Part shown: piece by piece, positions 14,321 to 39,612 of the stretch
How positions within the stretch are numbered: the first letter of the stretch is position 1
How the letters are laid out: every line of letters begins with the position of its first letter
Program-made: the position numbers and the translations under genes
The notes under the pieces: generated by a model
Seen by the model: only the letters and a program-made list of their open reading frames with translations
What the model was told of the DNA's origin: nothing
Databases searched by the model: none
Source of the DNA: a virus
Reading direction: 5' to 3' (one strand)
Length of the DNA stretch: 64,000 nt
Virus genome (UHGV): UHGV-0200554

Positions 14321-14984
14321 CTGGAGCAAATATTTCACCTACAGTGACGGTAAACTGTTCTGGGCGTATACCGCAAAAGCCGGAAGAGGCAGGGTTATAC
14401 ATCACGCAGGCGAGGAGGCCACAGGTACAGACACAGATGGCTATAGGGTGATAAGTGTGTCAGGTGTTGGACGTGTTAGTAGGCATAGAATAATTTGGGA
14501 GATGCATTACGGGGAGATACCTGAAGGCCTTGTTGTGCGGCACAAGAACGACATAGCAGGCGATGATAGGATAGAGAACTTAGTCCTAGGAACACAGGGA
14601 GATAATGTACGAGACATGATCTACAGTGACAAATTGAACATTAACAATACCTCAGGGTGTCGAGGTGTATGCTACCATAGGGGTGTAAAAAGATGGATTG
14701 CATCTGCTGGAGACATATATTTAGGATGTTTTAAGACAAAAGAGGATGCAATTACATGCAGAAAGTTATGGGAGGAGGGAAAATTCGTCCCGCAAGAATT
14801 AGATGTTAGAAATACCAGCGGTGTAACAGGGGTGTTCTATGTGCCAAGCTCTGGAAGGTGGAGAGTTAGAGTACAAAGTGGCAAAAAGAGAAAGAGCTAT
14901 GGTAGTTACAACACTTTAGAAGAAGCAAGAGCTGTAAGGGACAGAGTGATGAAAGAGATTGAGGAGTCTAAAGATGGGGAATAA
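14313..14984 (+). CDS. HNH homing endonuclease with two AP2-type DNA-binding domains
   Basis: HNH_3-like N-terminus (GYRVISV...RHRIIWE...HKN...DNRIENL-like), two AP2-like repeats (GVCYHRGVKRWIA..., GVFYVPSSGRWRVRV...). Confidence 0.7.
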   Translation: MVDWSKYFTYSDGKLFWAYTAKAGRGRVIHHAGEEATGTDTDGYRVISVSGVGRVSRHRIIWEMHYGEIPEGLVVRHKNDIAGDDRIENLVLGTQGDNVRDMIYSDKLNINNTSGCRGVCYHRGVKRWIASAGDIYLGCFKTKEDAITCRKLWEEGKFVPQELDVRNTSGVTGVFYVPSSGRWRVRVQSGKKRKSYGSYNTLEEARAVRDRVMKEIEESKDGE

Positions 14985-17900
14985 GTTTATACCCTCTGCG
15001 TATAGTCGTTATGGGGAACCGAACCCAGTTGCAACAAGATACAAAAGCGGAGGCAGTATGGCACGAGACTATCGTGATGAAAAAGAGGTTGAAACTGTAG
15101 AGACTGTTTTAGAAAATACTAAAATTGTCCCTGTTCCACAACAAAATATCGGACTGACGGCTGCACAATATTTCGGTGTGCGATCAGCATTGTCCCAAGA
15201 AGATGGTGTGACAGTCGTTGCAACATATTTCCCATATTACAACCGCTACGGCAATCTATCTGGCTTTAAAAAGCGTGATTGGTCTAAGCCAAAAGAGCAG
15301 AAAGGGCACTGGTCTGTAGTAGGCATTGTTAAGGCCAACAGCCAGTTCTTCGGTCAGAAAATGGTTGGTGAAGGCTCAGACCATCGTAAAATCATTGTCT
15401 GCGAAGGTGAAGGCGATGTTATTGCTGCGTGGCAGACTGAATGGATGATGGTCAGGAAAATAGCTACAGACCCGTCATCAAATAAGAAAGCTAAAGCGTG
15501 GGCACAAAGCGTTCTTGACGGTATTAAAGCCGTGCAGGATGGTGGTTCTGCTAAAGGTTTTCCCACAATTAACGTGGTAGGGCTTAATTGTGGTTGTGCG
15601 AATGCCGTAGACGCTTTTGCCAACAACGAGAAGTTTATTCGTGGCTTTGATGAGATTGTCCTGGCCTTCGATAATGACGCTGCAAATGATGTTGAGAAGC
15701 TAAAACATGTCACCAAAGGTGTTGAAGCCACTCACAATGTTGCAGCTTTCCTGATGGCTGACAACGTTTTCCATGTGCAGTATCCGAGCGAGGTAAATGA
15801 TCCAGAGGGTTACAAAGATATCCGTGATTTGTTCCAGGCTAAAAAGTATGATCAAATTCACGATATGTTCAAAAACCCGATCAAATACGTGCCAGACGCT
15901 GTAGCAGGCCTGAATGATTTCTCAATTGAAGATTTACGTAAAAAATCCACCAATGGTGTTGACATTGGGGCAGAGTTCCCTAAACTCCAGAAAATGTTGA
16001 AAGGTTTGCATAAAGGCACACTGGTCATGTTGACTGGCCCTTCCGGCGGTGGTAAGACTACGGTAGCTAAGAAGATTGAGCACCAGATAGCTAAATACCT
16101 GATGGATCCTACGGTGGCTAAAGCTGATGACTACGACCCCGAAGACAGGTTGTGTATGATTCACCTGGAAGAGGACCCAGAAGAAGCCATCAACTCGCTG
16201 TATGCTAACCAGCTGGGGTATGATATCAAGAATTTCATGGAGGACCCAAGCAAGTATCTGACCGAGCAGGAACACTTTGAAATCCACAAAGCCTGGGTTG
16301 ATGCTGATAAAATCAGAGTATTCCGGCACTTCGGTTCAATACCTGTAAACGACCTGATCACCAAGCTGAAACAGATGGTGTGCTTGTATCATTGTCGTTA
16401 CATCGTACTGGATCATCTGTCAATGGTTATTTCTGGTTTGAATGTAAAAGATGAGCGTAAAGAGCTGGACCTTGCAATGACGCAGCTTGCAGCATTCTGT
16501 AAGCAATTCAATGTGTTCATTTTGGTGATTGCACACTTACGTCGTACAGAGATTATCCCACCGAAGGATAAAGAAGGTAGGGCTTTACCGTTCTGGTATC
16601 CTGTCCGTAAAGAAAACCTTCGTGGTTGTGTTTCTGCGGACACAGAGTTTTTAACCCCGCAGGGGTGGAAACGCATAGATAACTATGCAGAAGGGGATTT
16701 GGTTGCGCAGCACGATGAAAATGGCGTAATGACTTTCGTAACCCCGAAAGCCTACATCAATCTTCCTTGCGAAGAAATGTGGCATGTTTCCAACACTCAC
16801 GTTGTAGACATGTTGTTGAGCGATGAACATCGTGTTGTATATGTGAATGACAGAACGCCAGATGTTTTCCGTACGAAAACCATGTTGGAAGTTGTCTATG
16901 ACCACAACAACAAGCCTTCAGGTATGCGTGGGAAAATACCTGCTACGTTCCTCACAGGGTGCAATGGGACGCTGGGGTTGACTGATGACCAATTACGCCT
17001 ACAGGTTGCTGTAAATGCTGATGGGACAGTTCTTACTGAGTCAACAGGAAGAGTGGCTGTGAGAATCAAAAAAGATCGGAAAAAACAACGTCTCGAGATG
17101 CTGCTGGAGAAAACAAACACCACTTATAGGCGTCTTGATTTGCACGGGGTGCACGAAGGACGCACAGAGTACCAATTTAAAGCACCGTGTGGGTATAAAG
17201 GTGTGACTGGGGAATGGTTTAATCTCAAACAACACGAGTTGGAGATTATCTGTGATGAGGTTATGTATTGGGACGGAGATTCTGTGAACAAAAACAGGGT
17301 GTCCACCATTAACAAACTTGAAGCGGACTTCTTACAGTTTGCCTACAGCGCCTGTGGACATAGAACATCTTTATCCATGAAGGAGAACAACAGTGGCTTT
17401 GGCGGTAGTTACAACTGTAAACCTTTGTACGAGGTAAATGTTTGCAATACTAAGTACATGCATATACGCAAAGGTAGTAATAACAAACCCTCTATTGAAC
17501 GTGTACCTTCCCCAGATGGACGTAAGTATTGCTTTACGTTACCGTCGGGTATGTGGGTGGCGCGCCGCAATGGGCATATTTTTATCACAGGAAATTCGGG
17601 GAGTATGGAACAACTCAGTTGGGTTGTCATAGGGGTAGAAGCAGAAGAGATGCCTGACAGGTCCCGTGGGCGTGTCCGTTTAGTTAGCCTAAAAAACAGG
17701 CCAGCTAAAACCTTGGGTATCGCTGATGTGCTGATTATGAACCCTGAGACTGGTAAATTCTCCGATGCCAGTGACTGGGTGTGGGATAAAGAGACAGGTT
17801 TCTTCCTGAACAAAGATGGGGATATTGTCTGGAGGCCACAAGATATGTTCGACAATGAAGAACATGTTGTTGTGGAAACTCCTGAAGGTAAGGTTACCGC

Positions 17901-18079: not shown

Positions 18080-20866
18080 ATGGCGCTTTTTTGTTATGAC
18101 TTTGAGGCCTCAGGCTTGCTCGATGAGCCTGAACTGTACTACCATTGTGGACTGTTTAAACAGCACCACAAAAACAATTTCATGCTATTCCTGCCGCTAA
18201 ACGACAGGACCCATTACACAGAGGAAGATGTAGAAACAGCAAAACAATTTGCTCTCAATAAGCAGACAATTTACAAAAACTGTCAGGTGCGGGTTGCCGA
18301 CTTCGGGTATCTGGAAGAGTGGTTGACAGGACATTCTGATTGGTCACCAACAGCTCTTGCCTGCCACAACTGCTTTGATTATGACCAGATTTTGATGGAA
18401 AAACTGTCAGGCATTCATTTCGACCTGTTCGAAGATAAAGATTGCATGGGAACCATCAACGGTCACAGGGTTAACCTGTTCGATACTCTGCCGATGAGTC
18501 GTATACTGTGGCCTGATCGCCCGTTACCGAAGGGTTGCCCAGAATCAGTATTCAACCCGGTAACGAAGAAAAGTCAAGCTGTAGGTCCACACGGGTTGAT
18601 GGCCTGGGGCTATGCACTTGGCAACCAGAAAGTTAAGATTGATGACTGGCGCAATCTTCCACTCTGGAAATACGTAGACCGTGTGTGGGAAGACGTTATC
18701 ATCCAGGAATTGCTCTGGGACGAACTGATCGCCGAGTCCAAAGGGACATTCTACGGTAAATCTGACATGCAAAACTTTATGTATGATCCAGACAAAGAGA
18801 AACCTGGTGGATTCAAACAGATCACTTGGAAGTATGCTCTGCGTCGTGGGATGCTTCAGCACTTCCTGATGGGCTTACAGGCAAGACAAGGTGTTTATTT
18901 TGATATTGATGGGGCGATAGCTTTACGTCAGAAGTGTGACGACATGATGAAAGAGATCGCTGATCGTGTGGAACCGCAGCTGCCACTGAAAGAAATTTCA
19001 GAGGCCCAGAAGCCTAAGTTCCCACAGAAACCGTTTAATACGGATGGTAGTATCTCTTCTCACGGCTACAGCTGGTTGAAGAACAAACTGGGGTATCCAG
19101 TTAATGAAGCAGCTTTCGACTTCAAACCTGCACCTAAACGGGCTTTCAACAAAGATGGTAGTGTTAGTGCCACAGGTGCTAAATGGTGTGTAGAAAGAGG
19201 TTGCACCGATCCTGAAAAACAGGCAGACTTCCTGAGGGCAGCACGGTCAGAGGAAGCACCTAAACCTCTGCCGGATGACCTGATGCAACAGGCAATTAAG
19301 GATTTGCAGGATAAGAAAATGCCTGATTGCATGGTGCCTATGAGAATGAATAACCAGATGGATATCAAGCGTTATCTAATCTCTGTAGGCTGGCAACCAA
19401 CAATGTGGAGAACGAAAGATTTAACCCGTGATTACCACAAAAAACAGTTGCCGGATGCTGAAGTTGATGCTAAAGTAAGGGAGTATATGGATGAACTGGA
19501 AACATCTGAGTATCGTGCCCTGATCATCCGTGAACTGAACAAGGATGCACGATTCAAAATTTCAGAAGCGAAGTTTCTGAGTCGTAAGAACTCCCCGAGG
19601 GTTGAGCAGGAGGTGTTCGCTAAGTTCCGGCGTAAAGCCAGAGGACTACCAACATCCCCGCAGCTGAAAGATAGCTTCGGGCATTTGTGTCCTAACCTGG
19701 CAAGACTGCAAGGAGAGATGGCAAAAGATATTGTGTTCTGGCTGTCATTGCGTAACCGTAGGTCAGTACTTGACCCAATCAAGGAAGATAAAGTTGATAC
19801 CGGATTGTTGAATCATCCGAGATTGCAGATCGATCACCGCTTACCCGCAGAAAGCTCTGGTTTGACTGCTACCGGACGACAGAAGCATAAAATATGTGCC
19901 AACCAGCCTAAACCTTCACCAAAAGTTGTATTGGGTAAGGAGATGCGTAGCCTCTGGAAACCTGCTCCTGGTAAGTATCAGTTGGGGGTGGATGGTTCCA
20001 ACCTTGAACAGCTGATAGGTGCATGGGGTGCTTACGATTTCGACAACGGGGCGTATTACAGGATTATAAGCGAAGGGGACGCACATGCTTTGAACGCCAA
20101 AGCCTACTCTAAAGTTGTGGGCAGGGAAGTTTCCCGTGGTGATGGTAAACCAATCACCTATGGTGTGATGTATGGCGCTCAAAAGGATAAAGTAGCGGAT
20201 ATGCTCGACGTTGTGCCGGAGGTTGGTCAGCAGGTAATTGATGCATTCTGGGATACCAACTTCGGCCTGAAAGGTCGTAAAGAGGCACTTGAGAAATTCT
20301 GGGAGGCAACAGGTAAGAAATTTATCTATGCTTTCGATGGTCATGCCATCTGGACACGCTCTAAACACTCCTTGCTGAATGCATATCAGCAGAATGGTGG
20401 CGCTTCATTGTGTGACTTGGTAGGCTTACTGGTTCATCGCAACCTAGTGACCTTGAAAATAGATAATAAAACTTGGTATGACCTAGGTGTCAGAAGAATA
20501 ATTTATTACCATGACGAATTTCAGTATGAAATTCCAGATAATGGCTTATTTAAAACAGTTTATGAGTTTGATACTCTGGAAGAACTGGAAAAATTCAAAG
20601 CAGAGGAGGAAGCAAAAGGTCGTATCTTTACTGGCAACAAATACAAAAAAGCCCGTAAAGATGAAAATGGTGAAGAAGTAGTTGACAGCAACGGTAAAAC
20701 CGTGTATGATCCAATCATAAACGAAAACGGCAAATGCCAGTTGATTCATTGCAAGGTTGGTGAAATGGTTGTTAAATGCTTCCACCAGGCATCTCGCATC
20801 ATGAAAGTACCTTTCCAGATCACAGGTGAAGGTCTTGTGGGATACTCGTGGGGCGAATGCCACTGA
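18080..20866 (+). CDS. DNA polymerase, family A, with 3'-5' exonuclease domain
   Basis: Exo I YDFEASG at N-terminus; motif B-like KPITYGVMYGAQ; motif C YHDEFQYE; 928 aa. Confidence 0.85.
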   Translation: MALFCYDFEASGLLDEPELYYHCGLFKQHHKNNFMLFLPLNDRTHYTEEDVETAKQFALNKQTIYKNCQVRVADFGYLEEWLTGHSDWSPTALACHNCFDYDQILMEKLSGIHFDLFEDKDCMGTINGHRVNLFDTLPMSRILWPDRPLPKGCPESVFNPVTKKSQAVGPHGLMAWGYALGNQKVKIDDWRNLPLWKYVDRVWEDVIIQELLWDELIAESKGTFYGKSDMQNFMYDPDKEKPGGFKQITWKYALRRGMLQHFLMGLQARQGVYFDIDGAIALRQKCDDMMKEIADRVEPQLPLKEISEAQKPKFPQKPFNTDGSISSHGYSWLKNKLGYPVNEAAFDFKPAPKRAFNKDGSVSATGAKWCVERGCTDPEKQADFLRAARSEEAPKPLPDDLMQQAIKDLQDKKMPDCMVPMRMNNQMDIKRYLISVGWQPTMWRTKDLTRDYHKKQLPDAEVDAKVREYMDELETSEYRALIIRELNKDARFKISEAKFLSRKNSPRVEQEVFAKFRRKARGLPTSPQLKDSFGHLCPNLARLQGEMAKDIVFWLSLRNRRSVLDPIKEDKVDTGLLNHPRLQIDHRLPAESSGLTATGRQKHKICANQPKPSPKVVLGKEMRSLWKPAPGKYQLGVDGSNLEQLIGAWGAYDFDNGAYYRIISEGDAHALNAKAYSKVVGREVSRGDGKPITYGVMYGAQKDKVADMLDVVPEVGQQVIDAFWDTNFGLKGRKEALEKFWEATGKKFIYAFDGHAIWTRSKHSLLNAYQQNGGASLCDLVGLLVHRNLVTLKIDNKTWYDLGVRRIIYYHDEFQYEIPDNGLFKTVYEFDTLEELEKFKAEEEAKGRIFTGNKYKKARKDENGEEVVDSNGKTVYDPIINENGKCQLIHCKVGEMVVKCFHQASRIMKVPFQITGEGLVGYSWGECH

Positions 20867-20932
20867 TAAATCAATAACTTACGTAACATACTGGAGGGGA
20901 ATACTTCCCCTCCCCAATCAGGAGAGTTAGCC

Positions 20933-21195: not shown

Positions 21196-21417
21196 ATGGA
21201 AGACTGTATCTTAGTAAAAGCTAAATTCGTCAATCCTAGAGCATTTTGGTTTACAGAAGGTGGTACTTACGTACTCCAGAAGTCTCCTCAAATAGCTGGC
21301 AATTTAATAGTCATTGACGACGATGGTGAATCATGGTTCACAACTCCACAGTTTGACGGTACGTGGGAAGTAGTGGGCACTTACACTCACGCTGTATTCG
21401 AGGAGATAGAGGAATGA
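21196..21417 (+). CDS. hypothetical protein
   Basis: ORF track 21106..21417 trimmed to ATG 21196 (RBS AAGGGG). Confidence 0.45.
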   Translation: MEDCILVKAKFVNPRAFWFTEGGTYVLQKSPQIAGNLIVIDDDGESWFTTPQFDGTWEVVGTYTHAVFEEIEE

Positions 21418-21791
21418 AAGTTAAAGGCACAGAACACATAGAACGCGCTGTGGAGGTTGAACTGGATGCCCGTGAAGTGGGCGAACTCATCGACAACACA
21501 GCAGAAGAAGTGCTCCTGCATTCGATTCAGTGCCGTGCAATGCAACGTTTCTATGAACGGGTTGCAGGTTTTGAAGGCTCTTTTTGTGTGCGGCAGCGGC
21601 AGGGAGATAATGGTATACTTGTGTACCAACTGTGGAAAATTGATGCTGACTGGGACTACCACAATGATGTTGGCATCGATGAAAAAATAAAAGACTTGAC
21701 AACAGAGGAGGTTGTGGAGTATATTTACCTCCGTGGTTGGGTAGAGAACGCAATATTCCAGTTAAGAATTCCAGTTGGAGAAGCCAAATGA
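21414..21791 (+). CDS. hypothetical protein
   Basis: ORF track trimmed to ATG 21414 (GAGGAATGA overlap). Confidence 0.5.
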   Translation: MKVKGTEHIERAVEVELDAREVGELIDNTAEEVLLHSIQCRAMQRFYERVAGFEGSFCVRQRQGDNGILVYQLWKIDADWDYHNDVGIDEKIKDLTTEEVVEYIYLRGWVENAIFQLRIPVGEAK

Positions 21792-22045
21792 AAATTATTA
21801 TCAAAGAAGACAAACTGATTTCTGATGAAACTTTCCGTGATTGCACTGCTGGTGCAGTCTATGAAGCGAAAATGTGTGAAAATCCGCTAATTGCACTCTG
21901 CGAACAACTCGGTATCCACCTTGACGAAGAAGATATTCGTTACGCCGAAGAAGGTCTGCAATGTCTCCTCTTCCACGACGATAAAGGAGAGGCTGTGTAT
22001 TGCACTTTCAAAGACGTGGTTATTGTAAAACCTGAACATTATTGA
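21788..22045 (+). CDS. hypothetical protein
   Basis: ORF track trimmed to ATG 21788. Confidence 0.45.
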   Translation: MKIIIKEDKLISDETFRDCTAGAVYEAKMCENPLIALCEQLGIHLDEEDIRYAEEGLQCLLFHDDKGEAVYCTFKDVVIVKPEHY

Positions 22046-22054
22046 TATTAACTA

Positions 22055-22083
22055 TTGACAAGCGTGGCGGGGTTATGTATAAT
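22055..22083 (+). promoter_or_regulatory. sigma70-like promoter, consensus TTGACA-17-TATAAT, -10 in hairpin loop
   Basis: TTGACA 22055-22060, TATAAT 22078-22083; CGGGG...CCCCG inverted repeat brackets the -10. Confidence 0.6.
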
Positions 22084-22111
22084 AGCCCCGTTAACAAAGA
22101 GGAGAGCCAGA

Positions 22112-22369
22112 ATGAAAGCACAACGTGTCAAAGCTAAAGTAAAACGTTTCTGCCTTGAAGAAGACTGCGCATTTTGTGATTGTGAACTAGGTGTCATCTA
22201 TGATGCTATCATCAATCTGGATGACGAAGATGATCCTCAACTGGGCAAAGAATGTGTCCTGATCGACGGGCATGGTGATGATGTTTACTGCACAACAGCA
22301 GAGCTGGAAATCGTAGAAGAAGGTGAAGTCTACGAAACTACTTACACAGAACTTTTCCGTAGCTTTTAA
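22112..22369 (+). CDS. hypothetical Cys-containing protein
   Basis: ATG 22112 with GAGGAGAG RBS; CxxC pairs (CLEEDCAFCDC). Confidence 0.5.
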   Translation: MKAQRVKAKVKRFCLEEDCAFCDCELGVIYDAIINLDDEDDPQLGKECVLIDGHGDDVYCTTAELEIVEEGEVYETTYTELFRSF

Positions 22370-22381
22370 AGGTGCCACAAG

Positions 22382-22780
22382 ATGAAAAAACTTTGGGATT
22401 TAGACCTCTTCGATCTTACTGGGTTTGACGATTCATTCGGTGTTATCACAGTCCGTGATGGTGTGGCTGTGCTTAACTTGAATGGTCAGCAATTCCTGCT
22501 TGAAGATATGGCTTTGGTACGTGCAGATGACAATCCAAAAGCTGATCTGTTTGACCGTTTACAGCCGTTCAATTTCCGTAAAGGTACAAAAGCAGACCTT
22601 GATTGTAAGGTCAACGTGATGGTCACACAACAAGGTCCGTACCTGGTAATCTGCGCAGTAAAGAAAATGTGCAGCCTGAATGATCACGACCCACGGGCTA
22701 AAAACGATGTTATCATCCTCAAAGTGGGTGATGCGATGGAAGATTTGATGAATGCAACTGGAGGTACTGGTGAGGACTGA
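22382..22780 (+). CDS. hypothetical protein
   Basis: ORF track. Confidence 0.5.
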   Translation: MKKLWDLDLFDLTGFDDSFGVITVRDGVAVLNLNGQQFLLEDMALVRADDNPKADLFDRLQPFNFRKGTKADLDCKVNVMVTQQGPYLVICAVKKMCSLNDHDPRAKNDVIILKVGDAMEDLMNATGGTGED

Positions 22781-23072
22781 TTACGAAAATATGGATCCTG
22801 AAGACTTCCTGAAGATCTTACGCCGCGTAATGAACTCACAAAACGAGATCACTTTGGAAGATGAGTTACTTGCCTCTTACCTCGAAGAGGCTGGCGATGA
22901 GCTTCCAATCTATGCGGGTCCGGGGGGCATGTATGCTTTGTGGCGCAAGATAGACATTCTTGAAACAGGGAAAGATATGATTATCTGGCACCTGATCAAC
23001 AATGTTGGGGTCCCTGCATTTGACAAAGCGGTTGCAGAATTTTATCAACTTGACGAAGGCTACCCAGTATGA
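22770..23072 (+). CDS. hypothetical protein
   Basis: ORF track 22752..23072; start uncertain (GTG 22770 after GGAGG). Confidence 0.4.
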   Translation: MRTDYENMDPEDFLKILRRVMNSQNEITLEDELLASYLEEAGDELPIYAGPGGMYALWRKIDILETGKDMIIWHLINNVGVPAFDKAVAEFYQLDEGYPV

Positions 23073-23329
23073 AACGCTTAACAGACCATGTATTCAAAGA
23101 AGGTGACAAAATCGTATTCGATGAGTTAGGTCCTGGCGCTGAAGCATGTGAAAACCTGACAGTAGGTAAAGAGTATGAAGTTGTAACTCCTACTTACAAA
23201 CACACACAGCTGTTCGGTATTGATGCTGAAATCTTACTACCAGGTATGTTTGAAATCCGTGATGATGCAGGTGATCTGATCGTAGGCGTACTTGGTGACG
23301 GCCTGTGGGGTGTTGCACGCCCAGTGTGA
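23069..23329 (+). CDS. hypothetical protein
   Basis: ORF track; ATGA overlap. Confidence 0.5.
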   Translation: MKRLTDHVFKEGDKIVFDELGPGAEACENLTVGKEYEVVTPTYKHTQLFGIDAEILLPGMFEIRDDAGDLIVGVLGDGLWGVARPV

Positions 23330-23349
23330 TACTGTATAAACAATCAGTA

Positions 23350-23379
23350 TTGTTATTCCTGTAGGGAAGTGCTATAATG
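23350..23379 (+). promoter_or_regulatory. sigma70-like promoter with -10 TATAAT inside GC-clamped hairpin
   Basis: TTGTTA-18-TATAAT (23374-23379); GGGAAGT...ACTTCCC inverted repeat (23364-23388). Confidence 0.5.
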
Positions 23380-23425
23380 GTACTTCCCTTTAATACGTTG
23401 TTCAACTAATCGGAGATTTCCTATA

Positions 23426-23821
23426 ATGGAACAAATGAACGATCAAGAAACGGTGGCAATGAACGTGCCAAACGAAGAACAACCTCAAGAAGCTGTATTC
23501 TTAGGGTTATCACGAGATCAGGTAGCTTTGCTGGCTGTTCTCTCTTCCTTCTTCTCCAACCTTACCGAAGTCATGAAGCAACAAGATGCTGATCGACTCT
23601 TCCAGGCACTGGTTGAAGAACCAAATTACAGACGCTTAGATTATGCTTTAGGTTGGGTAGCTCGCAACCGGGATGATATCCTTGCTTTGGTGGGAACCTG
23701 CAACTTTGCACTGGGCCTACTGGCTAAAGTACAGGATACCTTAATCAAAGTCGGCTTCCAGGCTGGTGATCAGCAACAAGAAGCAGAGCAACCACAACAA
23801 ACTGAAGGAGACAAACAATGA
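23426..23821 (+). CDS. hypothetical protein
   Basis: ORF track; Q-rich acidic C-terminus. Confidence 0.5.
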   Translation: MEQMNDQETVAMNVPNEEQPQEAVFLGLSRDQVALLAVLSSFFSNLTEVMKQQDADRLFQALVEEPNYRRLDYALGWVARNRDDILALVGTCNFALGLLAKVQDTLIKVGFQAGDQQQEAEQPQQTEGDKQ

Positions 23822-25071
23822 GTGTTGTACAAGAATTCAAAAACCCAATGAATCCCCGTGAAACTATTCTCATGGCTCACGGTATCATCAAACGGGTAAG
23901 TATTAAACCTATCAAAGGGGCTGATCCTGAAACAGGCATCAAAACTACTGTGTGGCAAGGTAAGAAAATAGAATCCTCACACACTATTGCTCTTCTAATC
24001 GCTGAAGTGGATGAGAACGACAAACTGCTCCAGGGCGGTGAAGAGATGTGGGTTAGCATGGGCGATAAACTCCTGAAACCTGGTCATCAGGATTCTGTTA
24101 GCGTTAAGATTAATGACAAATGGGAAACTGTAGTACCTGGCTGGATTGTTAACATCCCGCTTAAATCCAACGAGTACAACGGTAAAACCTATTACAAAGG
24201 ATCTCTGGCTAAAATTGTTGTGTTAGGGGCTGGTGAAGTACCTGCAAGTGCTCCTAAAGCGCAGCAGAAAGGCCAACAACAGCCTAAACATGGTCAGGGT
24301 AAGCAACCACAAGGCAACCAACAAAAACCTGCTCAGAAAGGGGCTAATGACGTTTTACGCATTTATGGTACTATCACCGCCATTGATGGTAAATCCGTAA
24401 CCGTTGATGATCAGAAGATTGGTGTTGGTGTGATGGTTGTCAACAACCCAAATCAGTTGAAAGAGCTGGTTGTAGGTGGTCGTGTTGCAGCTGTATGCGA
24501 TACAGCGGGTAATGTCCTGAGTGGTTTTAAAGCATATCCACCACTGGAAAACAAAACACCTCGTAAGTCAACCTACGACCCTATTGGTGTGAGCACTGGT
24601 CATGCTCTTAATGCAATGCAAATTCTTCTGGATCGTGGATTGAATCCGGGGAGTACGACAGATTTAGGTATCGCAATGCAACTCCACACCTTGACAATTG
24701 ACCTTAAAATGGAGTATGCTAAGGCAACAGGGAATGAAGAGGATGCTGTTGGGGCAACTGTAGGTAATGCTGTACTTAATGCATGTCGCCGTGTTAACAT
24801 CGACAACCTACAGAATCTTGATTGTCTGTTCAAAGATATCAAAGCTGAAGCCAATAACGTTCTGGTAAATCTGGCTGAACCTTTGTATCAGTGGATCAAA
24901 ACTGGCAGCACAACCGCTGTTTCTAAACAGGGAACCAAACAGGAACCTGTGCCGGAACAGAAGCCAGAACCGCAACCGGAGCCTCAGCAGAATACTGTAG
25001 ATGCTCCACCAGTAGAAGAGGAGGAACCTGATCCTACAGAGTGGGCCTTTGATGAAGACATACCCTTCTGA
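23818..25071 (+). CDS. SSB-like protein with acidic C-terminal tail (DEDIPF)
   Basis: C-terminus EEEEPDPTEWAFDEDIPF resembles the E. coli SSB tip DFDDDIPF and T7 gp2.5-type acidic tails; Gln/Gly-rich linker; N-terminal fold unverified. Confidence 0.5.
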   Translation: MSVVQEFKNPMNPRETILMAHGIIKRVSIKPIKGADPETGIKTTVWQGKKIESSHTIALLIAEVDENDKLLQGGEEMWVSMGDKLLKPGHQDSVSVKINDKWETVVPGWIVNIPLKSNEYNGKTYYKGSLAKIVVLGAGEVPASAPKAQQKGQQQPKHGQGKQPQGNQQKPAQKGANDVLRIYGTITAIDGKSVTVDDQKIGVGVMVVNNPNQLKELVVGGRVAAVCDTAGNVLSGFKAYPPLENKTPRKSTYDPIGVSTGHALNAMQILLDRGLNPGSTTDLGIAMQLHTLTIDLKMEYAKATGNEEDAVGATVGNAVLNACRRVNIDNLQNLDCLFKDIKAEANNVLVNLAEPLYQWIKTGSTTAVSKQGTKQEPVPEQKPEPQPEPQQNTVDAPPVEEEEPDPTEWAFDEDIPF

Positions 25072-25135
25072 TAAGTCATTGATTTATAGAGGATTTTAGC
25101 CATGTTCAACGAAGAAAACTGGGATGTGTAACGAT

Positions 25136-25162
25136 AAGGCCACCTTCGGGTGGCCTTTTTTA
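25136..25162 (+). terminator. rho-independent terminator
   Basis: AAGGCCACC-TTCG-GGTGGCCTT hairpin followed by TTTTTT. Confidence 0.75.
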
Positions 25163-25191
25163 TTGACAAGAGAAAAATTTTAGGCTATAAT
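25163..25191 (+). promoter_or_regulatory. sigma70-like promoter TTGACA-17-TATAAT
   Basis: TTGACA 25163-25168; TATAAT 25186-25191, directly abutting the terminator. Confidence 0.6.
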
Positions 25192-25493
25192 GCGACCACT
25201 AAGAGAAAGATAAGGACTACCACTAGGATTAAGCAAGACATTATCAAAGCACGCAAACAGTTGACAGCGGAAGAAGCTCTTGATCGGGGTTATCGTTTTG
25301 CACAGACTTATAAAGCTATTCGTGAAGCACTGACTGATATGGTCAATGGGCAGCGGGAAGTGATGAAAAACAATATCAGCATTAAAATTTCTGAGTACAC
25401 AATTTGCAGGTTAGAAAGTTTAGGCATCACTGTTCGTGATTTTGCTTTCAAAGTCTTGTTCCGTTTGGAACGTTTGTGAGAGGGAGGTATTCC

Positions 25494-26132
25494 ATGAAAA
25501 AGTTTATTGGCAAGGTAGTGGCTGTAGATGTGGACCTTACTTTTGTTGATTCTGGTCGTGCATGGTTAGACTGGTGTCAGAAAAGGACTGGTCTACCTAT
25601 TAACGTTTTTCTGCCGCCACAGAATCCACAGATGCGTTTCTATTATGACCTGACAAAATACTTCCCTGAATGCTACAAGAAAGATTTGAGGCTTTTCTGG
25701 AAGTTGGGTGGCATCTATGACAACCTTGAGCCGTTGCCTGGTGCTGTTGACACTATCAAGTGGTTGCATGATGAAGGAGCCATCATCTGGTTTTTAACTG
25801 GGTCTTTAAGCCACAAACAACATGTTAATAAATTCGATTTCATTAACAAGTGGTGTCCTTTCCTGGAGATAAAATGGGGAGGCCACGGAAACAGGAACGA
25901 AAACGAACTGATCCGTGTGAAAGATATGTACGAGAAGGTAAATTTCGAGTGGGACGTGCTCATAGATGATCGCATAGAGGCATTTCCTCCTCGGAAAGAT
26001 TCTCACGCCGGAAGCACGATTCTGATGGATACTCCTTACGATCAGAGTTGTACGGATTGGACACGTGTTGACGCTGTTGTTAACGGTTGGGGTGATAAAA
26101 TGAAAGAGCACCTTGAATGGGCTTTAGCTTGA
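25494..26132 (+). CDS. HAD-superfamily hydrolase, 5'(3')-deoxyribonucleotidase-like
   Basis: DxDxT motif (VAVDVDLTF) at N-terminus; ATG 25494 with GGAGGGAGG RBS. Confidence 0.6.
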   Translation: MKKFIGKVVAVDVDLTFVDSGRAWLDWCQKRTGLPINVFLPPQNPQMRFYYDLTKYFPECYKKDLRLFWKLGGIYDNLEPLPGAVDTIKWLHDEGAIIWFLTGSLSHKQHVNKFDFINKWCPFLEIKWGGHGNRNENELIRVKDMYEKVNFEWDVLIDDRIEAFPPRKDSHAGSTILMDTPYDQSCTDWTRVDAVVNGWGDKMKEHLEWALA

Positions 26133-26590
26133 TGCCTTCCCACAAAGCAGAGGTACACCACATGTGCAAATGTAAATCTTACAATAAGAAAGTGAAGGGC
26201 GCTAAACACCCAAATGTTATTCTGGAAGTTCCTAAACGTCTTCGTACAAAACGGTTAGATGGGACGGAACAACGCACTATTGCAGTTGATAAATGCATGG
26301 CTAAACGGCTGGTTAGTTTGTGGGCAGCAGGTTTGCAGACTATGAACTGTTGCTGTGGTCACAACAAGTTTATGCCTACAATAATCATTCCAGAAGATGC
26401 TTGTCTGGAAGATTATTTCAAGATTCTTGATCGCTATGAGCAAACTTGTGTTGCACAGTGGCGTAAGTTCAAAGGTGAGTTTAGTCTGTTCTACTACATT
26501 AAGGTGGGTTCAGCTATACTTTGTATCAGTGAGCCTCCAAAAGTTCATGGCCCAGATTTTTATATAGCCACCAAAGTGTTCAATCAATAA
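26132..26590 (+). CDS. hypothetical Cys-rich protein
   Basis: ORF track trimmed to ATG 26132 (TGATG overlap); several Cys/His (CKCKS, CCCGHNKF). Confidence 0.45.
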   Translation: MPSHKAEVHHMCKCKSYNKKVKGAKHPNVILEVPKRLRTKRLDGTEQRTIAVDKCMAKRLVSLWAAGLQTMNCCCGHNKFMPTIIIPEDACLEDYFKILDRYEQTCVAQWRKFKGEFSLFYYIKVGSAILCISEPPKVHGPDFYIATKVFNQ

Positions 26591-26607
26591 GTTAAGATAT
26601 TAAGTTC

Positions 26608-26865
26608 ATGAAAAGAAAACTAATTAAGCGCAATAAGGCATTTTTAAGTAAGTGTATTAAGGACGCTAAGGGCTGGCCTCTATACCTCTTCCTTTATGAC
26701 AGGTATTCTAAAATGTCGGTTATGGAAATGCGGTACTACAAGAAGCTCAGAAAGGAATCATATACGAAACAGGGCCGCATTAACGGACTTTACCTGATGT
26801 GGTACGGTAAAGAACCGTCCAGAATCTGTGTTGGGTTAAAGGGGCGTATACGGAACAAAAATTAA
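26608..26865 (+). CDS. hypothetical basic protein
   Basis: ORF track. Confidence 0.45.
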   Translation: MKRKLIKRNKAFLSKCIKDAKGWPLYLFLYDRYSKMSVMEMRYYKKLRKESYTKQGRINGLYLMWYGKEPSRICVGLKGRIRNKN

Positions 26866-26916
26866 TATTTTGCAACTTTACCTCTTGACAACACCAACAA
26901 AAAAGAGTACATTAAA

Positions 26917-26945
26917 GGCCAACAAAGATTGTTGGCCTTTTTATT
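26917..26945 (+). terminator. rho-independent terminator
   Basis: GGCCAACA-AAGAT-TGTTGGCC hairpin then TTTTT. Confidence 0.7.
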
Positions 26946-26961
26946 TTCGGAGAGACATATC

Positions 26962-27465
26962 ATGGCACTTAGTCTGAAACACGAATTTGGCGGTCTTGTT
27001 AACAGAGAACTTTTCGGTATTGACTGGTGTGTAGAGAAGTTTACTGGTTATCAAGACAAGGAAGAGGCTTACGTTACGCTGTCTGTACAAATTTACACTA
27101 CAAGAATCACTATCCACCAGGGTGATGGAAATGTAACTCTTGACGAAATGTATGCCAAATACGATCTTATCCGTGATATGATCGAGCGCTGGATGTTTGC
27201 TCTGGATAACAACATCAAATGTAGTGATCGTATCTGGTTAGACAACTCTCACGCCAAAGGGCACATGCACGGGAATTGCACTTTCGAGGTCTGTGTTGAC
27301 GGCGACAGTAGTGATGACACTTTCACTTTAGCTGATTGTCAAAAACGGCTGTATTTTTCTCCTTACCAAATAGACCAAGTAAAATTACTGCATAAAGAAC
27401 TTTGCAACCTTCTTAAAGCAATCAAGTATTGCAAAACTCATGACGTTTATGGGGGTGCATTATGA
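26962..27465 (+). CDS. hypothetical protein
   Basis: ORF track trimmed to ATG 26962 (GGAGAGA RBS). Confidence 0.5.
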   Translation: MALSLKHEFGGLVNRELFGIDWCVEKFTGYQDKEEAYVTLSVQIYTTRITIHQGDGNVTLDEMYAKYDLIRDMIERWMFALDNNIKCSDRIWLDNSHAKGHMHGNCTFEVCVDGDSSDDTFTLADCQKRLYFSPYQIDQVKLLHKELCNLLKAIKYCKTHDVYGGAL

Positions 27466-27917
27466 TTTTTGGTAGTGACGGTGGCAAATGGTACGGTGAT
27501 GACTACTACGGAATCAGCTACCACATAGAACTGAACAAAAAGCTGCCTTGTGTGTTTGAACTGTGCATTAAAAAGGCAGAACGTGTTGTTCGCCTGCACA
27601 ATGATCATTTTGCAGACTTCCTGATAAAAATCGAAAGACTGCAAGACTGTTTGTGTGATTTTTTACAAGCAGTAGATAACGGTGAGAAAAGTTACGGCAG
27701 GGTTGATCTCGACAGCAGTGATGAATTTTTCAAAATGCTGGCGCGTTGTTGCTGGCATGTCGGGATGGAAGGGGCTTGCTATCCAGAGTTTTGTATCTCT
27801 GATTGCTACCGCATCAATCATTTTACTTCTATCGAGTTTTTAAAAGACCTCGAAAACGAGTTAAAGGTTGTGTTAGACTACCTGCACAAACACGCAGCAG
27901 AGTACGGAGATCGTTAA
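27462..27917 (+). CDS. hypothetical protein
   Basis: ORF track; ATGA overlap. Confidence 0.5.
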   Translation: MIFGSDGGKWYGDDYYGISYHIELNKKLPCVFELCIKKAERVVRLHNDHFADFLIKIERLQDCLCDFLQAVDNGEKSYGRVDLDSSDEFFKMLARCCWHVGMEGACYPEFCISDCYRINHFTSIEFLKDLENELKVVLDYLHKHAAEYGDR

Positions 27918-27938
27918 GCTAAGTAGAAGAGGGGCACT

Positions 27939-28400
27939 ATGATTATCGGTACTGTAAATGGGGATTTAATCTCTATCTTTAAAAGCGGGGCTGGTCACCT
28001 GATCCACGGTTGCAACTGCTTCCACACAATGGGTGCAGGCATAGCAAGGCAGATTGCCAAAGAGTTTCCTCAAGCGTTGGAGACTGATAGGATGACTGCT
28101 TACGGTGATCCAGACAAGTTGGGCACGCTCTCTTGTTGGGAGCATTTTGCCAAGAACAGGATTGTATACGGGATTAACATGTATACTCAATTCCGACCAG
28201 GGCCTAATGCTGATTACTCTTCAATCATGAATGGTTTTGAGCAAGTCAATGAGGTATTCGAAGGTATGTCGTTACCGTTCTACATCCCTAAGATTGGGTG
28301 CGGTATAGGAGGTCTTATGTGGGAGCATGTAGAGAATATCATCAACCTCACGACTCCTGATATAAAAGTGATCGTAGTGGAATACTGCAAAAAAGGTTGA
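27939..28400 (+). CDS. macro-domain (ADP-ribose binding/processing) protein
   Basis: GDLISIF...AGHLIHGCNCFHTMGAGIARQI pattern typical of macro domains; C-terminal IGCGIGG. Confidence 0.55.
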   Translation: MIIGTVNGDLISIFKSGAGHLIHGCNCFHTMGAGIARQIAKEFPQALETDRMTAYGDPDKLGTLSCWEHFAKNRIVYGINMYTQFRPGPNADYSSIMNGFEQVNEVFEGMSLPFYIPKIGCGIGGLMWEHVENIINLTTPDIKVIVVEYCKKG

Positions 28401-28424
28401 CACCGGAAAATTATGGTGTATAAT
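28397..28424 (+). promoter_or_regulatory. sigma70-like promoter with extended -10 (TGTATAAT)
   Basis: TTGACA 28397-28402, 16-bp spacer, TATAAT 28419-28424. Confidence 0.6.
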
Positions 28425-28457
28425 GCAAACACATAAACCAACAGAGAGCGACATGTT

Positions 28458-28649
28458 ATGGTAATTTTTAATCGAGATGGTATTATTGTCCAACAGCACC
28501 CGTTCCTCGAATACTATCAGGTTGAGCAATGGAGCTACGGTGATTGCAGCCACACTTACGGTCAAGGCTGGGGGTATCATGTAGTTTTTGAATCAACTGA
28601 CCTTAATGAAGTAAAACAGAAAGTTTTAGAACTCCTTAACAGCAAGTAA
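28458..28649 (+). CDS. hypothetical protein
   Basis: ORF track. Confidence 0.45.
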   Translation: MVIFNRDGIIVQQHPFLEYYQVEQWSYGDCSHTYGQGWGYHVVFESTDLNEVKQKVLELLNSK

Positions 28650-28675
28650 GTATTACCGCACCAGTTAAAAATTGG

Positions 28676-28704
28676 TTGACAACAGGTGTGGAATCTGGTA
28701 CAGT
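28676..28704 (+). promoter_or_regulatory. sigma70-like promoter
   Basis: TTGACA 28676-28681, 17-bp spacer, TACAGT -10. Confidence 0.45.
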
Positions 28705-28736
28705 ACATCCTATACAAAAGAGAAGGAGCACACACT

Positions 28737-28964
28737 ATGTTGTATCGAGTTAAAGTTGCAGCGGATGTTCAGGGTCCGTGGGCTGAGTGGGCAGGCTGGT
28801 ATTTACTTGCTCCAATGGAGGGTTGTACTGATATTAAGTACAATGCTTGCCTCTACAACGAAGAGGAACTTGAAGAGGAACTCTTCATTGCAGATGGTAT
28901 AGAGCACGGCCTGTTTGAAGTAGAGCCAGCTTTCGACTCTATACCGGGTTATTATTCTTATTGA
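28737..28964 (+). CDS. hypothetical protein
   Basis: ORF track trimmed to ATG 28737 (AGAAGGAG RBS). Confidence 0.5.
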   Translation: MLYRVKVAADVQGPWAEWAGWYLLAPMEGCTDIKYNACLYNEEELEEELFIADGIEHGLFEVEPAFDSIPGYYSY

Positions 28965-28975
28965 GGGGACGAAAA

Positions 28976-29194
28976 ATGAGCATTCAAGAACATGCAGCAC
29001 ATATGTGCCATATGATCACAACTCAGTACCCTCAGCAAATGGCATCAGACTTACGTCTGATCGAGATCCATAGCCGCTTTGCCAATATTGTAGAGGATCC
29101 TGTTTATTACTCTGGTGTACACGGTGAACGTGCATTTGATGCCGCTTGCAACGATTTTGTAGACTGGGAAGATGCACTTTGCTACCAGAGTTAA
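28976..29194 (+). CDS. hypothetical protein
   Basis: ORF track trimmed to ATG 28976. Confidence 0.45.
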   Translation: MSIQEHAAHMCHMITTQYPQQMASDLRLIEIHSRFANIVEDPVYYSGVHGERAFDAACNDFVDWEDALCYQS

Positions 29195-29215
29195 GATGGT
29201 TGAGGAGGTTCTCCG

Positions 29216-29374
29216 ATGGAAGTTTTAGGTTTATCAGTAATGCTCTGTGTTTTTGTGGTATTTTGTATTAGCTTTATGCCACTATCAACAGCTAACAAGG
29301 CGTTCTTCATCACGCTGATTCTGCTATTTATTATCGGCGGCACTATGTATGAAGCTGGAATTATCTTTCACTAG
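29216..29374 (+). CDS. small hydrophobic (membrane) protein, 52 aa
   Basis: Not in ORF track (under 60 aa); GAGGAGG RBS; translation hand-checked in frame to TAG 29372-29374. Confidence 0.45.
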   Translation: MEVLGLSVMLCVFVVFCISFMPLSTANKAFFITLILLFIIGGTMYEAGIIFH

Positions 29375-29385
29375 GAGGACGTACA

Positions 29386-29580
29386 ATGGGTGATTTACAG
29401 AAAATCTTATTTACTGTCCTGCTCCTTGTCGGTATGTTTGCGGCAGTAGGCTTTGTGGCTATTAGTGCTGCACACTACGCAGACTTTCCTGCATGGGTAC
29501 GTGCTTCGTATTCAGCTATTATGTTGGGGGGTTTGTGCGGTTTCTTAAAATATATAGGACGTGAGGTGCCTGAAAAATGA
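29386..29580 (+). CDS. small membrane protein
   Basis: ORF track; hydrophobic segments; AGGAGG RBS. Confidence 0.5.
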   Translation: MGDLQKILFTVLLLVGMFAAVGFVAISAAHYADFPAWVRASYSAIMLGGLCGFLKYIGREVPEK

Positions 29581-30005
29581 TCTACCCTGTACCTAAACTA
29601 ATTCCGGTATATGACAACGATTCTCGCTTTCAGGTAATGATTGCAGGTATCCTTGTCACTGGTAAAATCGATAGCTATGTGTTCAATGGTGAACGTTTTA
29701 AAGAATACTCTATTGAATGGGATGGCTATGACTATAACGTCTACTTCGATGAAAACGGGGAGATGTACTTCGAAGAAGTAGAAATGTTGTTAGGTGTTGC
29801 AGGTATCATCAAACCTAAGGATGTAGAATTTGCTGAAGGGGAATGCGATGACTGCGGTGACTATTGCGTCTGCGATATCCACTTACCTTCAGGGGAAACT
29901 ATCTATTTTGAAACGCATTTCGGTGAAACGAACTTCCCTAATGATTGGGAAGAGTTTTTCGAGATTGTGGAAAAAGAAAGGGAAGTGTTAAGAAGCCGTC
30001 GATAA
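29577..30005 (+). CDS. hypothetical protein
   Basis: ORF track; ATGA overlap; Cys cluster CDDCGDYCVCD. Confidence 0.5.
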   Translation: MIYPVPKLIPVYDNDSRFQVMIAGILVTGKIDSYVFNGERFKEYSIEWDGYDYNVYFDENGEMYFEEVEMLLGVAGIIKPKDVEFAEGECDDCGDYCVCDIHLPSGETIYFETHFGETNFPNDWEEFFEIVEKEREVLRSRR

Positions 30006-30036
30006 ACCCAGTGTAATAATTTTCACTTATTTGCTA

Positions 30037-30065
30037 TTGACAACTGTGTGGGAGAGTGTTATACT
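30037..30065 (+). promoter_or_regulatory. sigma70-like promoter with -10 inside GC-clamped hairpin
   Basis: TTGACA 30037-30042, 17-bp spacer, TATACT; GGGAGAG...CTCTCCC inverted repeat (30050-30070). Confidence 0.55.
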
Positions 30066-30094
30066 CTCCCCATCTTAAAAAGAAGGAGAGAGTT

Positions 30095-30289
30095 ATGGCA
30101 ACAGTACATCTTATGGCTATCAAACGTCACAATACTTTGTATGGCCCGATTTATGAAACTGTTCTCGGCAATCTGTATATCATCAATGGGACTAGCTTCA
30201 GCAAAATTGACATTCACCACATCGAAGCGTTTCGTGTAGCAGAGCCAGAGTTAGGTTGCTGGTTCCTTCCTGTAGAATGCAATTTATGA
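30095..30289 (+). CDS. hypothetical protein
   Basis: ORF track trimmed to ATG 30095 (AAGGAGAG RBS). Confidence 0.45.
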   Translation: MATVHLMAIKRHNTLYGPIYETVLGNLYIINGTSFSKIDIHHIEAFRVAEPELGCWFLPVECNL

Positions 30290-33830: not shown

Positions 33831-33842
33831 GCTGCCTTTTAG

Positions 33843-33863
33843 ATGGCCCCCTGGTGGGGCCAT
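33843..33863 (+). repeat. intergenic palindromic element (TTTTAGATGGCC...GGCCAT family)
   Basis: ATGGCCCC-CTGGT-GGGGCCAT hairpin preceded by GCCTTTTAG and followed by TGATAAAG. Confidence 0.5.
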
Positions 33864-33907
33864 TGATAAAGGTAACTTGGGGCAACAATAACCGAGAGAA
33901 AGAAAAT

Positions 33908-35849: not shown

Positions 35850-35872
35850 GTTATTTTTCGGTGGCCTGGGTA

Positions 35873-35901
35873 TTGACACCGGGCCATCTATAAAGTAACC
35901 T
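35873..35901 (+). promoter_or_regulatory. promoter-like element with -35 inside palindromic loop
   Basis: GGTGGCC-TGGGTATTGACACC-GGGCCATC; TTGACA 35873-35878. Confidence 0.35.
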
Positions 35902-36933: not shown

Positions 36934-36957
36934 GATGGCCTCCCTGGCGGGGCCATC
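36934..36957 (+). repeat. intergenic palindromic element (TTTTAGATGGCC...GGCCATC family)
   Basis: GATGGCC-TCCCTGGCGG-GGCCATC preceded by GCCTTTTA, followed by CATAAAG. Confidence 0.5.
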
Positions 36958-39569: not shown

Positions 39570-39612
39570 TCAATAAAGAAAACTCAACCACGAAGCAAGA
39601 AGGAGAAACATC

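Follow-up and report, generated by a model that had tools for sequence, protein, structure and literature searches.

The virus genome UHGV-0200554, of which a 64,000-nucleotide stretch (the window, meaning that whole stretch) was analyzed, contains three promoters whose -10 hexamers lie inside hairpins with a G-rich 5' arm and a C-rich 3' arm. This arrangement raises the question of what the pairing serves. An earlier note on the same DNA placed the sites at 22055, 23350 and 30037, and suggested a regulatory protein or a supercoiling-sensitive switch rather than coincidence. All three sites were found at these positions, on the + strand, and are designated here S1, S2 and S3. In the interpretation that we favor, with a probability of roughly 0.65, S1-S3 (and probably a fourth candidate, S0) are cassettes of the promoter-early stem-loop (PeSL) type, in which a host early promoter is combined with a + strand RNA hairpin that would be present on read-through transcripts. 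Judged from comparison with related phage genomes, the feature itself is real and functional.

Promoters and hairpins of S1, S2, S3 and S0

The promoters are of the sigma70 type, as had been claimed, with 10-12 of 12 consensus matches and 17-nt spacers. The S1 promoter (22055-22083, + strand; 12/12) consists of the -35 hexamer TTGACA at 22055-22060 and the -10 hexamer TATAAT at 22078-22083, and is predicted to drive an 85-aa ORFan gene (22112-22369). Its hairpin (22065-22093, + strand), TGGCGGGGTTAT[gtata]ATAGCCCCGTTA, has a 12-bp stem with three G-T pairs and a 5-nt loop; the perfect inverted repeat CGGGG/CCCCG reaches this length through G-U pairs. The hairpin core, CGGGGTTAT/ATAGCCCCG, occupies 22068-22090 with the -10 box in the loop and the 3' arm, and the last core base of the 3' arm is the predicted start (~G22090).

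The S2 promoter (23350-23378, + strand) has TTGTTA at 23350-23355 and an extended -10 element (TGn), TGcTATAAT, with the hexamer at 23373-23378. It matches 10 of 12 consensus positions and precedes a phrog_7310 gene (23426-23821), followed by a gene for a 417-aa SSB-like protein (23818-25071). In the S2 hairpin (23363-23389, + strand), AGGGAAGTGCTA[taa]TGGTACTTCCCT, a perfect 8-bp repeat (AGGGAAGT/ACTTCCCT) is lengthened to 12 bp, and the triloop corresponds to -10 positions 3-5. The S3 promoter (30037-30065, + strand; 11/12) combines TTGACA at 30037-30042 with TGtTATACT, hexamer at 30060-30065; the predicted start (~A30072) directly follows the C run, and the gene predicted to be driven encodes a 64-aa ORFan (30095-30289). 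Its hairpin (30050-30070, + strand), GGGAGAGTG[tta]TACTCTCCC, has a 3-nt loop and a 9-bp stem; the perfect core is the 8-bp GGGAGAGT/ACTCTCCC, and the full stem was seen in wider fold and stem scans. The earlier description of the -35 elements as near-consensus holds for S1 and S3 (TTGACA), but at S2 only four of the six positions match, though this promoter has the extended -10. The GC inverted repeats of 5-7 bp described there are likewise present, but the stems that contain them are longer and less purely GC (9-12 bp with G-U pairs).

Every case follows the same plan: the 5' arm (G/A-rich in S1-S3) lies in the promoter spacer, the 3' arm (C/T-rich in S1-S3) forms the discriminator, and the stem ends close to the predicted start, at -1 or +1. 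The discriminators of the three promoters are C-rich (AGCCCC, CTCCCC and GGTACTTCC), and the 25 nt upstream of S1-S3 are 72-80% AT (76% for S1, 80% for S3) vs 57% for the window. The arms have no sequence in common among the sites (CGGGGTTAT, AGGGAAGTGCTA and GGGAGAGTG), and the position of the -10 box relative to the hairpin is not the same in S1, S2 and S3.

A search of the window for the same architecture added one candidate, S0 (21696-21732, + strand), although it is weaker and lies inside a coding sequence. It comprises TTGACA at 21696-21701, an 18-nt spacer and TATATT at 21720-21725, with GGAGGT (21707-21712) pairing with ACCTCC (21727-21732) across a 14-nt loop; the fold is weak (-9.4 kcal/mol, z = -2.1). 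S0 is embedded in the 3' end of the coding sequence 21363-21791, upstream of the gene at 21788-22045, and is the exception to the intergenic setting of the other sites. This coding sequence is real (phrog_6273 match over aa 18-129). The promoter homologous to S0 in phage JES2013 (sequence L004, 6942-7017) lies in a true intergenic region.

Two enrichment tests, both post hoc, were applied to the number of such sites. A loose class required a perfect stem around the hexamer, 5 bp or longer and with 4 or more GC pairs; 2.3% of window positions qualify, vs 1.5% in shuffles, as do 4 of the 29 + strand promoter-like sites (P = 0.004). In a strong class the stem had to reach 9 bp, G-U counting as paired, with 5 or more GC pairs and a loop of 3-12 nt; the base rate is 0.5% of window positions, and at least 3 of 66 promoter-like sites belong to this class (P = 0.005). 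Because these counts are post hoc, the main weight was placed on comparative evidence. They leave some room for the view that GC-rich inverted repeats just happen to border AT-rich -10 boxes, since only 3-4 of the about 66 promoter-like sites of the window have the feature. Even the simple count, however, gives P of about 0.001-0.005, and coincidence is refuted by covariation, the pairing being maintained with compensatory changes across genera; we regard it as hardly credible.

Several minor points concern these sites. The S2 and S3 intergenic regions both start with CCCAGTGT(G/A)AT (23320-23332 and 30007-30019), which may be a recombination scar or chance. A 10-codon open reading frame (ORF) starting from ATG 23376 in the S2 loop was dropped as a candidate, as it is not conserved in JES2013. 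We also considered whether the G-rich arms mimic Shine-Dalgarno sequences, or the C-rich arms act as anti-Shine-Dalgarno sequences for the downstream ribosome-binding site. Appreciable complementarity was found at S3 only (ACTCTC with GAGAGT), and an RNA initiated at the promoter itself would not contain this arm; the idea was dropped for these two reasons.

Conservation of the pairing and the strand that pairs

By its proteins and gene order, the window is an rV5-like (Vequintavirinae-like) phage. The 928-aa DNA polymerase (18080-20866) shows 74% identity to rV5-like/Vequintavirus polymerases in protein comparison, and the 417-aa protein encoded downstream of S2 has homologs in 288 phage records, nearly all of them Vequintavirinae or close relatives. 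Synteny is clear with JES2013, HMD-6, SSE121 and VIK251, and the gene order is as in JES2013 and HMD-6. S1-S3 are situated directly downstream of the DNA polymerase gene, in a + strand array of small genes (64-142 aa around the sites, assigned to PHROGs of unknown function or without a match), and the intergenic regions carrying the cassettes are short (60-90 nt).

As a megablast search of the region against phage genomes gave a single weak match (HMD-6), relatives were found through protein searches. A DNA pattern scan of IMG/VR with the conserved stretch downstream of S2 matched five contigs. Three IMG/VR contigs, L001-L003, share 88-90% DNA identity with the window and differ from it by many gene-sized indels. 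Rfam covariance models run over the whole window gave 0 matches at the gathering score.

All the hairpins are kept in L001-L003, and the S1 and S3 promoters are conserved there. At one position of the S1 stem the pair is T-G in the window, T-A in L001 and L003, and C-G in L002, which is a full compensatory series via a wobble intermediate. In Vequintavirus, the promoter homologous to S1 lies upstream of a phrog_11936 gene, and its -10 box is inside a 9-bp hairpin, GATAGGACC[taatacaat]GGTCCTATC, with arms wholly unlike those of S1; three variants of this hairpin differ by one A-T to G-C double change and two G-T wobbles. In S3, a C-to-T change in L001 and L003 converts a G-C pair into G-T, while L002 adds one G-C pair to the stem. 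No alignable homolog of S3 was found in JES2013 or HMD-6, where a macro-domain gene is inserted and the gene order is different, and conservation of this site is therefore documented only among the close relatives.

The evidence is fullest for S2. Upstream of the phrog_7310 gene, the homologous region has a constant 17-nt spacer, and a hairpin centered on the -10 box is present in the window group, in JES2013 and HMD-6 (Vequintavirus), SSE121 (Seunavirus) and VIK251 (Mydovirus), and in IMG/VR contigs, the homologs spanning at least four genera. HMD-6/JES2013 differ from the window by three double changes that preserve pairing, and a G-C to C-G transversion pair distinguishes VIK251 (AAGGGGTA/TACCCCTT) from contig L027 (AACGGGTA/TACCCGTT). 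In an alignment of 11 homologs, including three in which the GC stem is largely lost, 78.0% of the cells of the 12-bp helix are paired, compared to 61.4 +/- 2.9% after shuffling (0/500 shuffles as high), and the covariation score is 0.536, compared to 0.243 (again 0/500 as high). The best of the slid registers reached 58% paired and a covariation score of 0.277. Both sides have changed in 9 of the 12 pairs. The invariant columns are TTGnnA of the -35 (T1, T2, G3, A6) and TAnnAT of the -10 (T1, A2, A5, T6), and invariant hexamers together with a covarying stem indicate that the S2 promoter and the S2 hairpin are both under selection. The promoter is kept but the GC stem is lost or has moved in contigs L023 and L026 and in Avunavirus phage 24-2-1; absence of the repeats in relatives that retain the promoter, which the earlier note had named as evidence against its reading, was found in these three.

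The maintenance of pairing through compensatory substitutions bears out the earlier claim that the recurrence is not coincidental. The same data speak against its regulatory protein. If the inverted repeats were bound by a dimeric repressor, of the phage or of the host, that blocks access to the -10 box, this would account for dyad symmetry on or near this box at several promoters. However, no half-site is common to the sites, for which reason the operator reading was rejected; the homologs have unrelated arms in which complementarity, and not sequence, is conserved, and tolerance of G-T wobbles with exclusion of A-C is the signature of nucleic-acid pairing. An operator function is very unlikely.

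Wherever a pair within the helices departs from Watson-Crick, it is G-T as read on the + strand and in no case A-C; we counted at least 11 such independent states. RNA folding gave -17.9 kcal/mol (z = -4.3) for the + strand of S1 and -9.0 for its - strand, and -17.0 kcal/mol (z = -5.6) and -10.6, respectively, for S2; the + strand is ~7-9 kcal/mol more stable and its structure about twice as stable. Since a cruciform needs both strands paired, this asymmetry points to a single-stranded molecule of + strand sequence, most simply read-through RNA. The stems end close to the predicted start, and a transcript initiated at the promoter itself would lack the hairpin, leaving read-through RNA as its only carrier. 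Promoters located upstream are co-oriented with the sites, with no canonical terminator between. These data suggest that the stems are selected to pair as a + strand single-stranded structure, which favors RNA.

The same observations bear on gating at the DNA level, in which a cruciform formed under negative supercoiling, or a hairpin of the non-template strand, would hide or expose the -10 box. The -10 box is always inside the structure, in four genera it is at the center of the S2 hairpin, and the key S2 -10 bases (A2 and T6) form the loop-closing pair. G-T tolerance fits + strand single-stranded DNA, and the discriminators AGCCCC, CTCCCC and GGTACTTCC are of the C-rich kind, known from rRNA-type promoters for short-lived, supercoil- and ppGpp-sensitive open complexes. 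For a cruciform, however, each of the 2-3 G-T pairs in a stem has an A-C mismatch as its counterpart on the other strand, which folds 7-9 kcal/mol worse, and the cruciform reading was rejected on the grounds of this strand asymmetry. The perfect cores are only 5-8 bp long, the -10 register differs among the three sites, some relatives have the promoter without the GC hairpin, and the same type of hairpin occurs without a promoter. Gating of the DNA is in our opinion unlikely, and the supercoiling-sensitive switch suggested earlier is disfavored by the restriction of G-T pairs to the + strand, the poorer folding of the - strand, the promoters kept without a GC hairpin, the promoter-less hairpin and the fact that the PeSLs of RB49/phi1 are known to have this layout.

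Comparison with promoter-early stem-loops

PeSLs were described in the T4-like coliphages RB49 and phi1 (Arbiol et al. 2010, PMC2839356) as an AT-rich region and a sigma70 consensus promoter with a stable G-run/C-run stem-loop in which G-T pairs are allowed. The stem-loop overlapping the -10 box is among its commonest positions, and the PeSLs are sited in ORFan-rich hyperplastic regions (PMC2839356). Two roles were proposed: (i) a terminator or attenuator, one lacZ reporter (RB49 PeSL211/210) having shown terminator-like activity, and (ii) modular shuffling, for which mini-circles arising from PeSL-PeSL exchange were reported (PMC2839356). PeSL/PmSL variants were later extended to T4/PST and KVP40/nt-1 (Comeau et al. 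2014, PMC4122927). In the literature searched, PeSLs were found described for T4-like phages only; in the genome papers of rV5 and CB7, promoters and terminators appear as separate lists.

When RB49 intergenic regions were put through the same analysis, they showed TTGACA-17-TAATAT/TAAGAT with GGGGGTA[..]TACCCCC around the -10; the C-rich arm ends right before an A and is not followed by a T tract. The RB49 and phi1 PeSLs resemble S1-S3 in having a near-consensus sigma70 promoter, an AT-rich upstream sequence and a G-run/C-run stem over the -10 box, and also in their intergenic position between a stop codon and the next Shine-Dalgarno sequence, among small ORFans in an indel-rich region. In sequence, the RB49 PeSLs come close to the S2 counterparts in SSE121 and VIK251: the RB49 element GGGGGTA[gtaata]TACCCCC around TAATAT is comparable to GGGGTA[ata]TACCCC of SSE121. 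The cassettes of T4/PST and KVP40/nt-1 follow the same design with a lineage-specific stem and promoter consensus, and their degraded 'half' cassettes beside indels (PMC4122927) resemble a half-promoter found in L003 next to the insertion of a DHFR-like gene. Their stems are different (A3-4G3/C3T3-4 or AGNA/TCNT), and some accompany Mot-dependent middle promoters (PMC4122927). PeSLs differ from the sites studied here also in their phage hosts, which are T4-like and not rV5-like, and only 3-4 copies of the subclass overlapping the -10 occur in the 64 kb. Since the host genome is rV5-like and not T4-like (Straboviridae), membership of the PeSL class would be by design and function, not by descent.

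Hairpins at or near promoters are known from other systems. The promoters of the virion RNA polymerase of coliphage N4, an enterobacterial phage, have a 5-7 bp stem and a 3-nt loop. There the hairpins, on the template strand, are what the phage polymerase recognizes, and they depend on supercoiling and SSB. S1-S3 differ in that the hexamers are sigma70 consensus and the stem sequences vary freely. Stringent, supercoil-sensitive promoters of the rrnB P1 type have a C/G-rich segment between the -10 and the start; that segment need not pair with the spacer, whereas the pairing here co-varies.

At 20893-20913 (+ strand), 27 nt beyond the stop codon of the DNA polymerase gene, a further hairpin of this G-rich/C-rich kind, GGAGGGGAA[tac]TTCCCCTCC, stands alone; it has neither a good promoter nor a T tract. 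Its L001 version, GGGAGGGGG/CCCCCTCCC, carries a compensatory AA/TT to GG/CC change. The hairpin module can therefore exist without a promoter. At other promoters (in the window, JES2013 and DU_PP_I) a hairpin is located upstream of the -35, around the -35, in the spacer, or just after the -10. Given these varied registers, those of S1, S2 and S3 included, the overlap looks like two modules sharing 60-90 nt and not like a fixed device.

According to the mechanism that we propose, the first module, a host sigma70 promoter (AT-rich upstream region, -35, 17-nt spacer and -10), would start transcription of the next small gene. The second would be the stem-loop, whose G-rich 5' arm lies within the spacer and whose loop and C-rich 3' arm cover the -10 and the discriminator. 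The hairpin would form only in transcripts reading through from upstream promoters, where it could act as a leaky attenuator or terminator, as a stabilizer of the 3' end, or as both, and would insulate expression of each small gene from upstream transcription. We favor a leaky attenuator or 3'-end-protecting role, a step that is inferred. On this view, the -10 box would be overlapped because both modules are packed into 60-90-nt regions and the C-rich arm is reused as discriminator, and not because the hairpin gates the promoter.

The C-rich 3' arm may, in its capacity as discriminator, tune promoter kinetics and sensitivity to supercoiling and ppGpp, and in this respect alone may the earlier supercoiling suggestion still hold. 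A stronger version of this idea is that the arm was selected mainly to tune open-complex lifetime (through ppGpp/DksA, the initiating nucleoside triphosphate or supercoiling), with the G-rich spacer being secondary. The 3' arm corresponds exactly to -6 to -1 at S1, S3 and the RB49 PeSLs, and a purine start comes next. Such selection leaves unexplained both the spacer/discriminator co-variation that keeps the pairing and the promoter-less hairpin at 20893, and is improbable as the main explanation. Discriminator tuning is compatible with the PeSL interpretation as an added layer.

It could also be argued that the GGGG...CCCC stems are recombination substrates, serving as targets or homology patches for ORFan insertion, deletion and exchange, in line with the mini-circles formed by PeSL-PeSL exchange (Arbiol 2010, PMC2839356). 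In L002, a 424-bp insertion directly after S1 is flanked by a 32-bp duplication, which extends from the hairpin end to the start codon. The insert (7838-8212) places a 124-aa ORF between S1 and the resident gene, and the duplication corresponds to the ribosome-binding-site/start region. In L003 (14880-15570, corresponding to ~28397-28460 of the window), a DHFR-like gene is inserted at promoter P28397 (TTGACA, 16-nt spacer, TATAAT; 28397-28424, + strand), with a degraded half-promoter copy downstream, and L001 lacks DNA on both sides of P28397; this promoter lies at indel boundaries between relatives, three such events being counted there. It has no GC hairpin, however, and the clearest indels are located there or in a ribosome-binding-site/start region. 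Strand-specific G-U tolerance is not expected of a duplex-DNA recombination site. An alignment of six cassettes showed 45% mean column identity and little in common beyond the hexamers and the Shine-Dalgarno sequence, which provides little homology for recombination. We consider a primary function in recombination quite unlikely.

Several observations weigh against the PeSL interpretation. It should be noted that the stems of S1-S3 are not followed by a canonical U tract: the tails ACAAAGAGGA, TTAATACGTT and CATCTTAAAA contain 0, 5 and 3 T in the next 10 nt, respectively. A terminator scan called none of these hairpins, yet it found those at 25136 and 26914, and the latter show that the same gene array has canonical T-tract terminators. 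The absence of a U tract in such an array makes efficient intrinsic termination at S1-S3 doubtful, and canonical intrinsic terminators were rejected as their identity. The role of the RNA may be that of an attenuator, a stabilizer or a processing site, and transcript-end mapping for rV5-like phages was not found in the literature searched. The cassettes of the window are not a stereotyped repeat, whereas PeSL copies within one genome share a motif of about 100 bp and those of RB49 are near-identical over tens of bases. Indels abut only some of the hairpin promoters, one being directly after S1 and others not at cassettes. Tolerance of G-T would fit + strand single-stranded DNA too. Finally, the S2 hairpin stays centered on the -10 across four genera, its loop being closed by a pair between the -10 bases A (position 2) and T (position 6); this fixed centering could hint at a promoter-linked role.

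The latter would be the case if the overlap were a dedicated coupling device: on read-through from upstream, or while replication leaves the region single-stranded, the + (non-template) strand or the nascent RNA would fold, engage the essential -10 bases in pairing and control how active the internal promoter is. Upstream transcription would in this way be sensed by the promoter of each ORFan, and the centering of S2 before phrog_7310 and the 417-aa SSB-like gene in at least four Vequintavirinae genera would be its trace. It would equally apply to the RB49-type PeSLs, whose stem-loop function was assayed with one reporter construct only. We regard such a device as quite improbable.

If the PeSL interpretation is correct, the design extends beyond T4-like phages to the rV5-like/Vequintavirinae lineage, where one cassette (S2) has been retained between the same genes in several genera. 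Compared to the original PeSL papers, the covariation and the strand-specific G-U pairs are new evidence for a single-stranded stem of the + strand. The odd-looking promoters would be explained by a known design, and current understanding is not challenged. For annotation, this means that hairpins without a T tract over strong phage early promoters should not be read as operators. S1, S2 and S3, with their natural compensatory variants, are small, defined targets for studying the function of the PeSL stem-loop.

Other elements of the window

A canonical terminator followed by a promoter was found at 25136-25191 (+ strand). The hairpin AAGGCCACC[ttcg]GGTGGCCTT and the subsequent TTTTTT (25136-25157) abut a promoter composed of TTGACA at 25163, a 17-nt spacer and TATAAT. 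As proposed for S1-S3, a hairpin ending upstream transcripts stands beside the promoter of the next gene. The layout differs, with an A-tract/stem/T-tract placed upstream of the -35, whereas S1-S3 have no T tract and lie over the -10. Just before this terminator there is a 9-codon ORF, MFNEENWDV* (25102-25131, + strand), with a plausible ribosome-binding site. JES2013 has MNEENWDV* at the homologous place (L004, within 11347-11442), where GTG is replaced by the synonymous GTA. The ORF is also kept in L001-L003 and may represent a conserved micro-gene or leader peptide.

At 26885-26940 (+ strand), TTGACA-17-TACATT is followed by an A-tract/stem/T-tract hairpin, AAAGGCCAACAA[aga]TTGTTGGCCTTT. 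The terminator call was made on the + strand only, where the tail is T-rich, the reverse-strand tail not being so. The layout with the hairpin just after the -10 is kept in L002 and L003, with C-G replaced by T-A in one stem pair, a compensatory change.

A family of hairpins with the pattern GATGGCCnn[loop]nnGGCCATC, always followed by (A/T)ATAAAG, was identified on the + strand at 33842-33864, 35860-35888, 36934-36957 and 39543-39571, and also in JES2013 (L004 16804-16883, 17425-17513 and 17760-17834). The copy at 35860 has a perfect TTGACA (35873-35878) in its loop, and the JES2013 copies carry TTGACT there. This family forms a '-35 in loop' cassette class conserved between this phage and Vequintavirus.

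Window-specific blocks that do not occur in L001-L003 were noted at 14316-15017, coinciding with a 223-aa ORF (14313-14984), and at 16630-17605, inside a 1018-aa ORF. The polymerase gene contains insertions at 20512 in L001 (847 bp) and L002 (312 bp), and near 20090 in L003 (~980 bp), a pattern resembling the homing-endonuclease traffic of rV5-like polymerases.

Five further + strand promoters, with the -35 at 33352, 35361, 38671, 41362 and 41987, are near-consensus with 16-nt spacers and A-rich upstream tracts. They share GAAAG(CAGTA) ~6-7 nt after the -10, have no hairpin, and look like a separate class with a conserved initial transcribed sequence.

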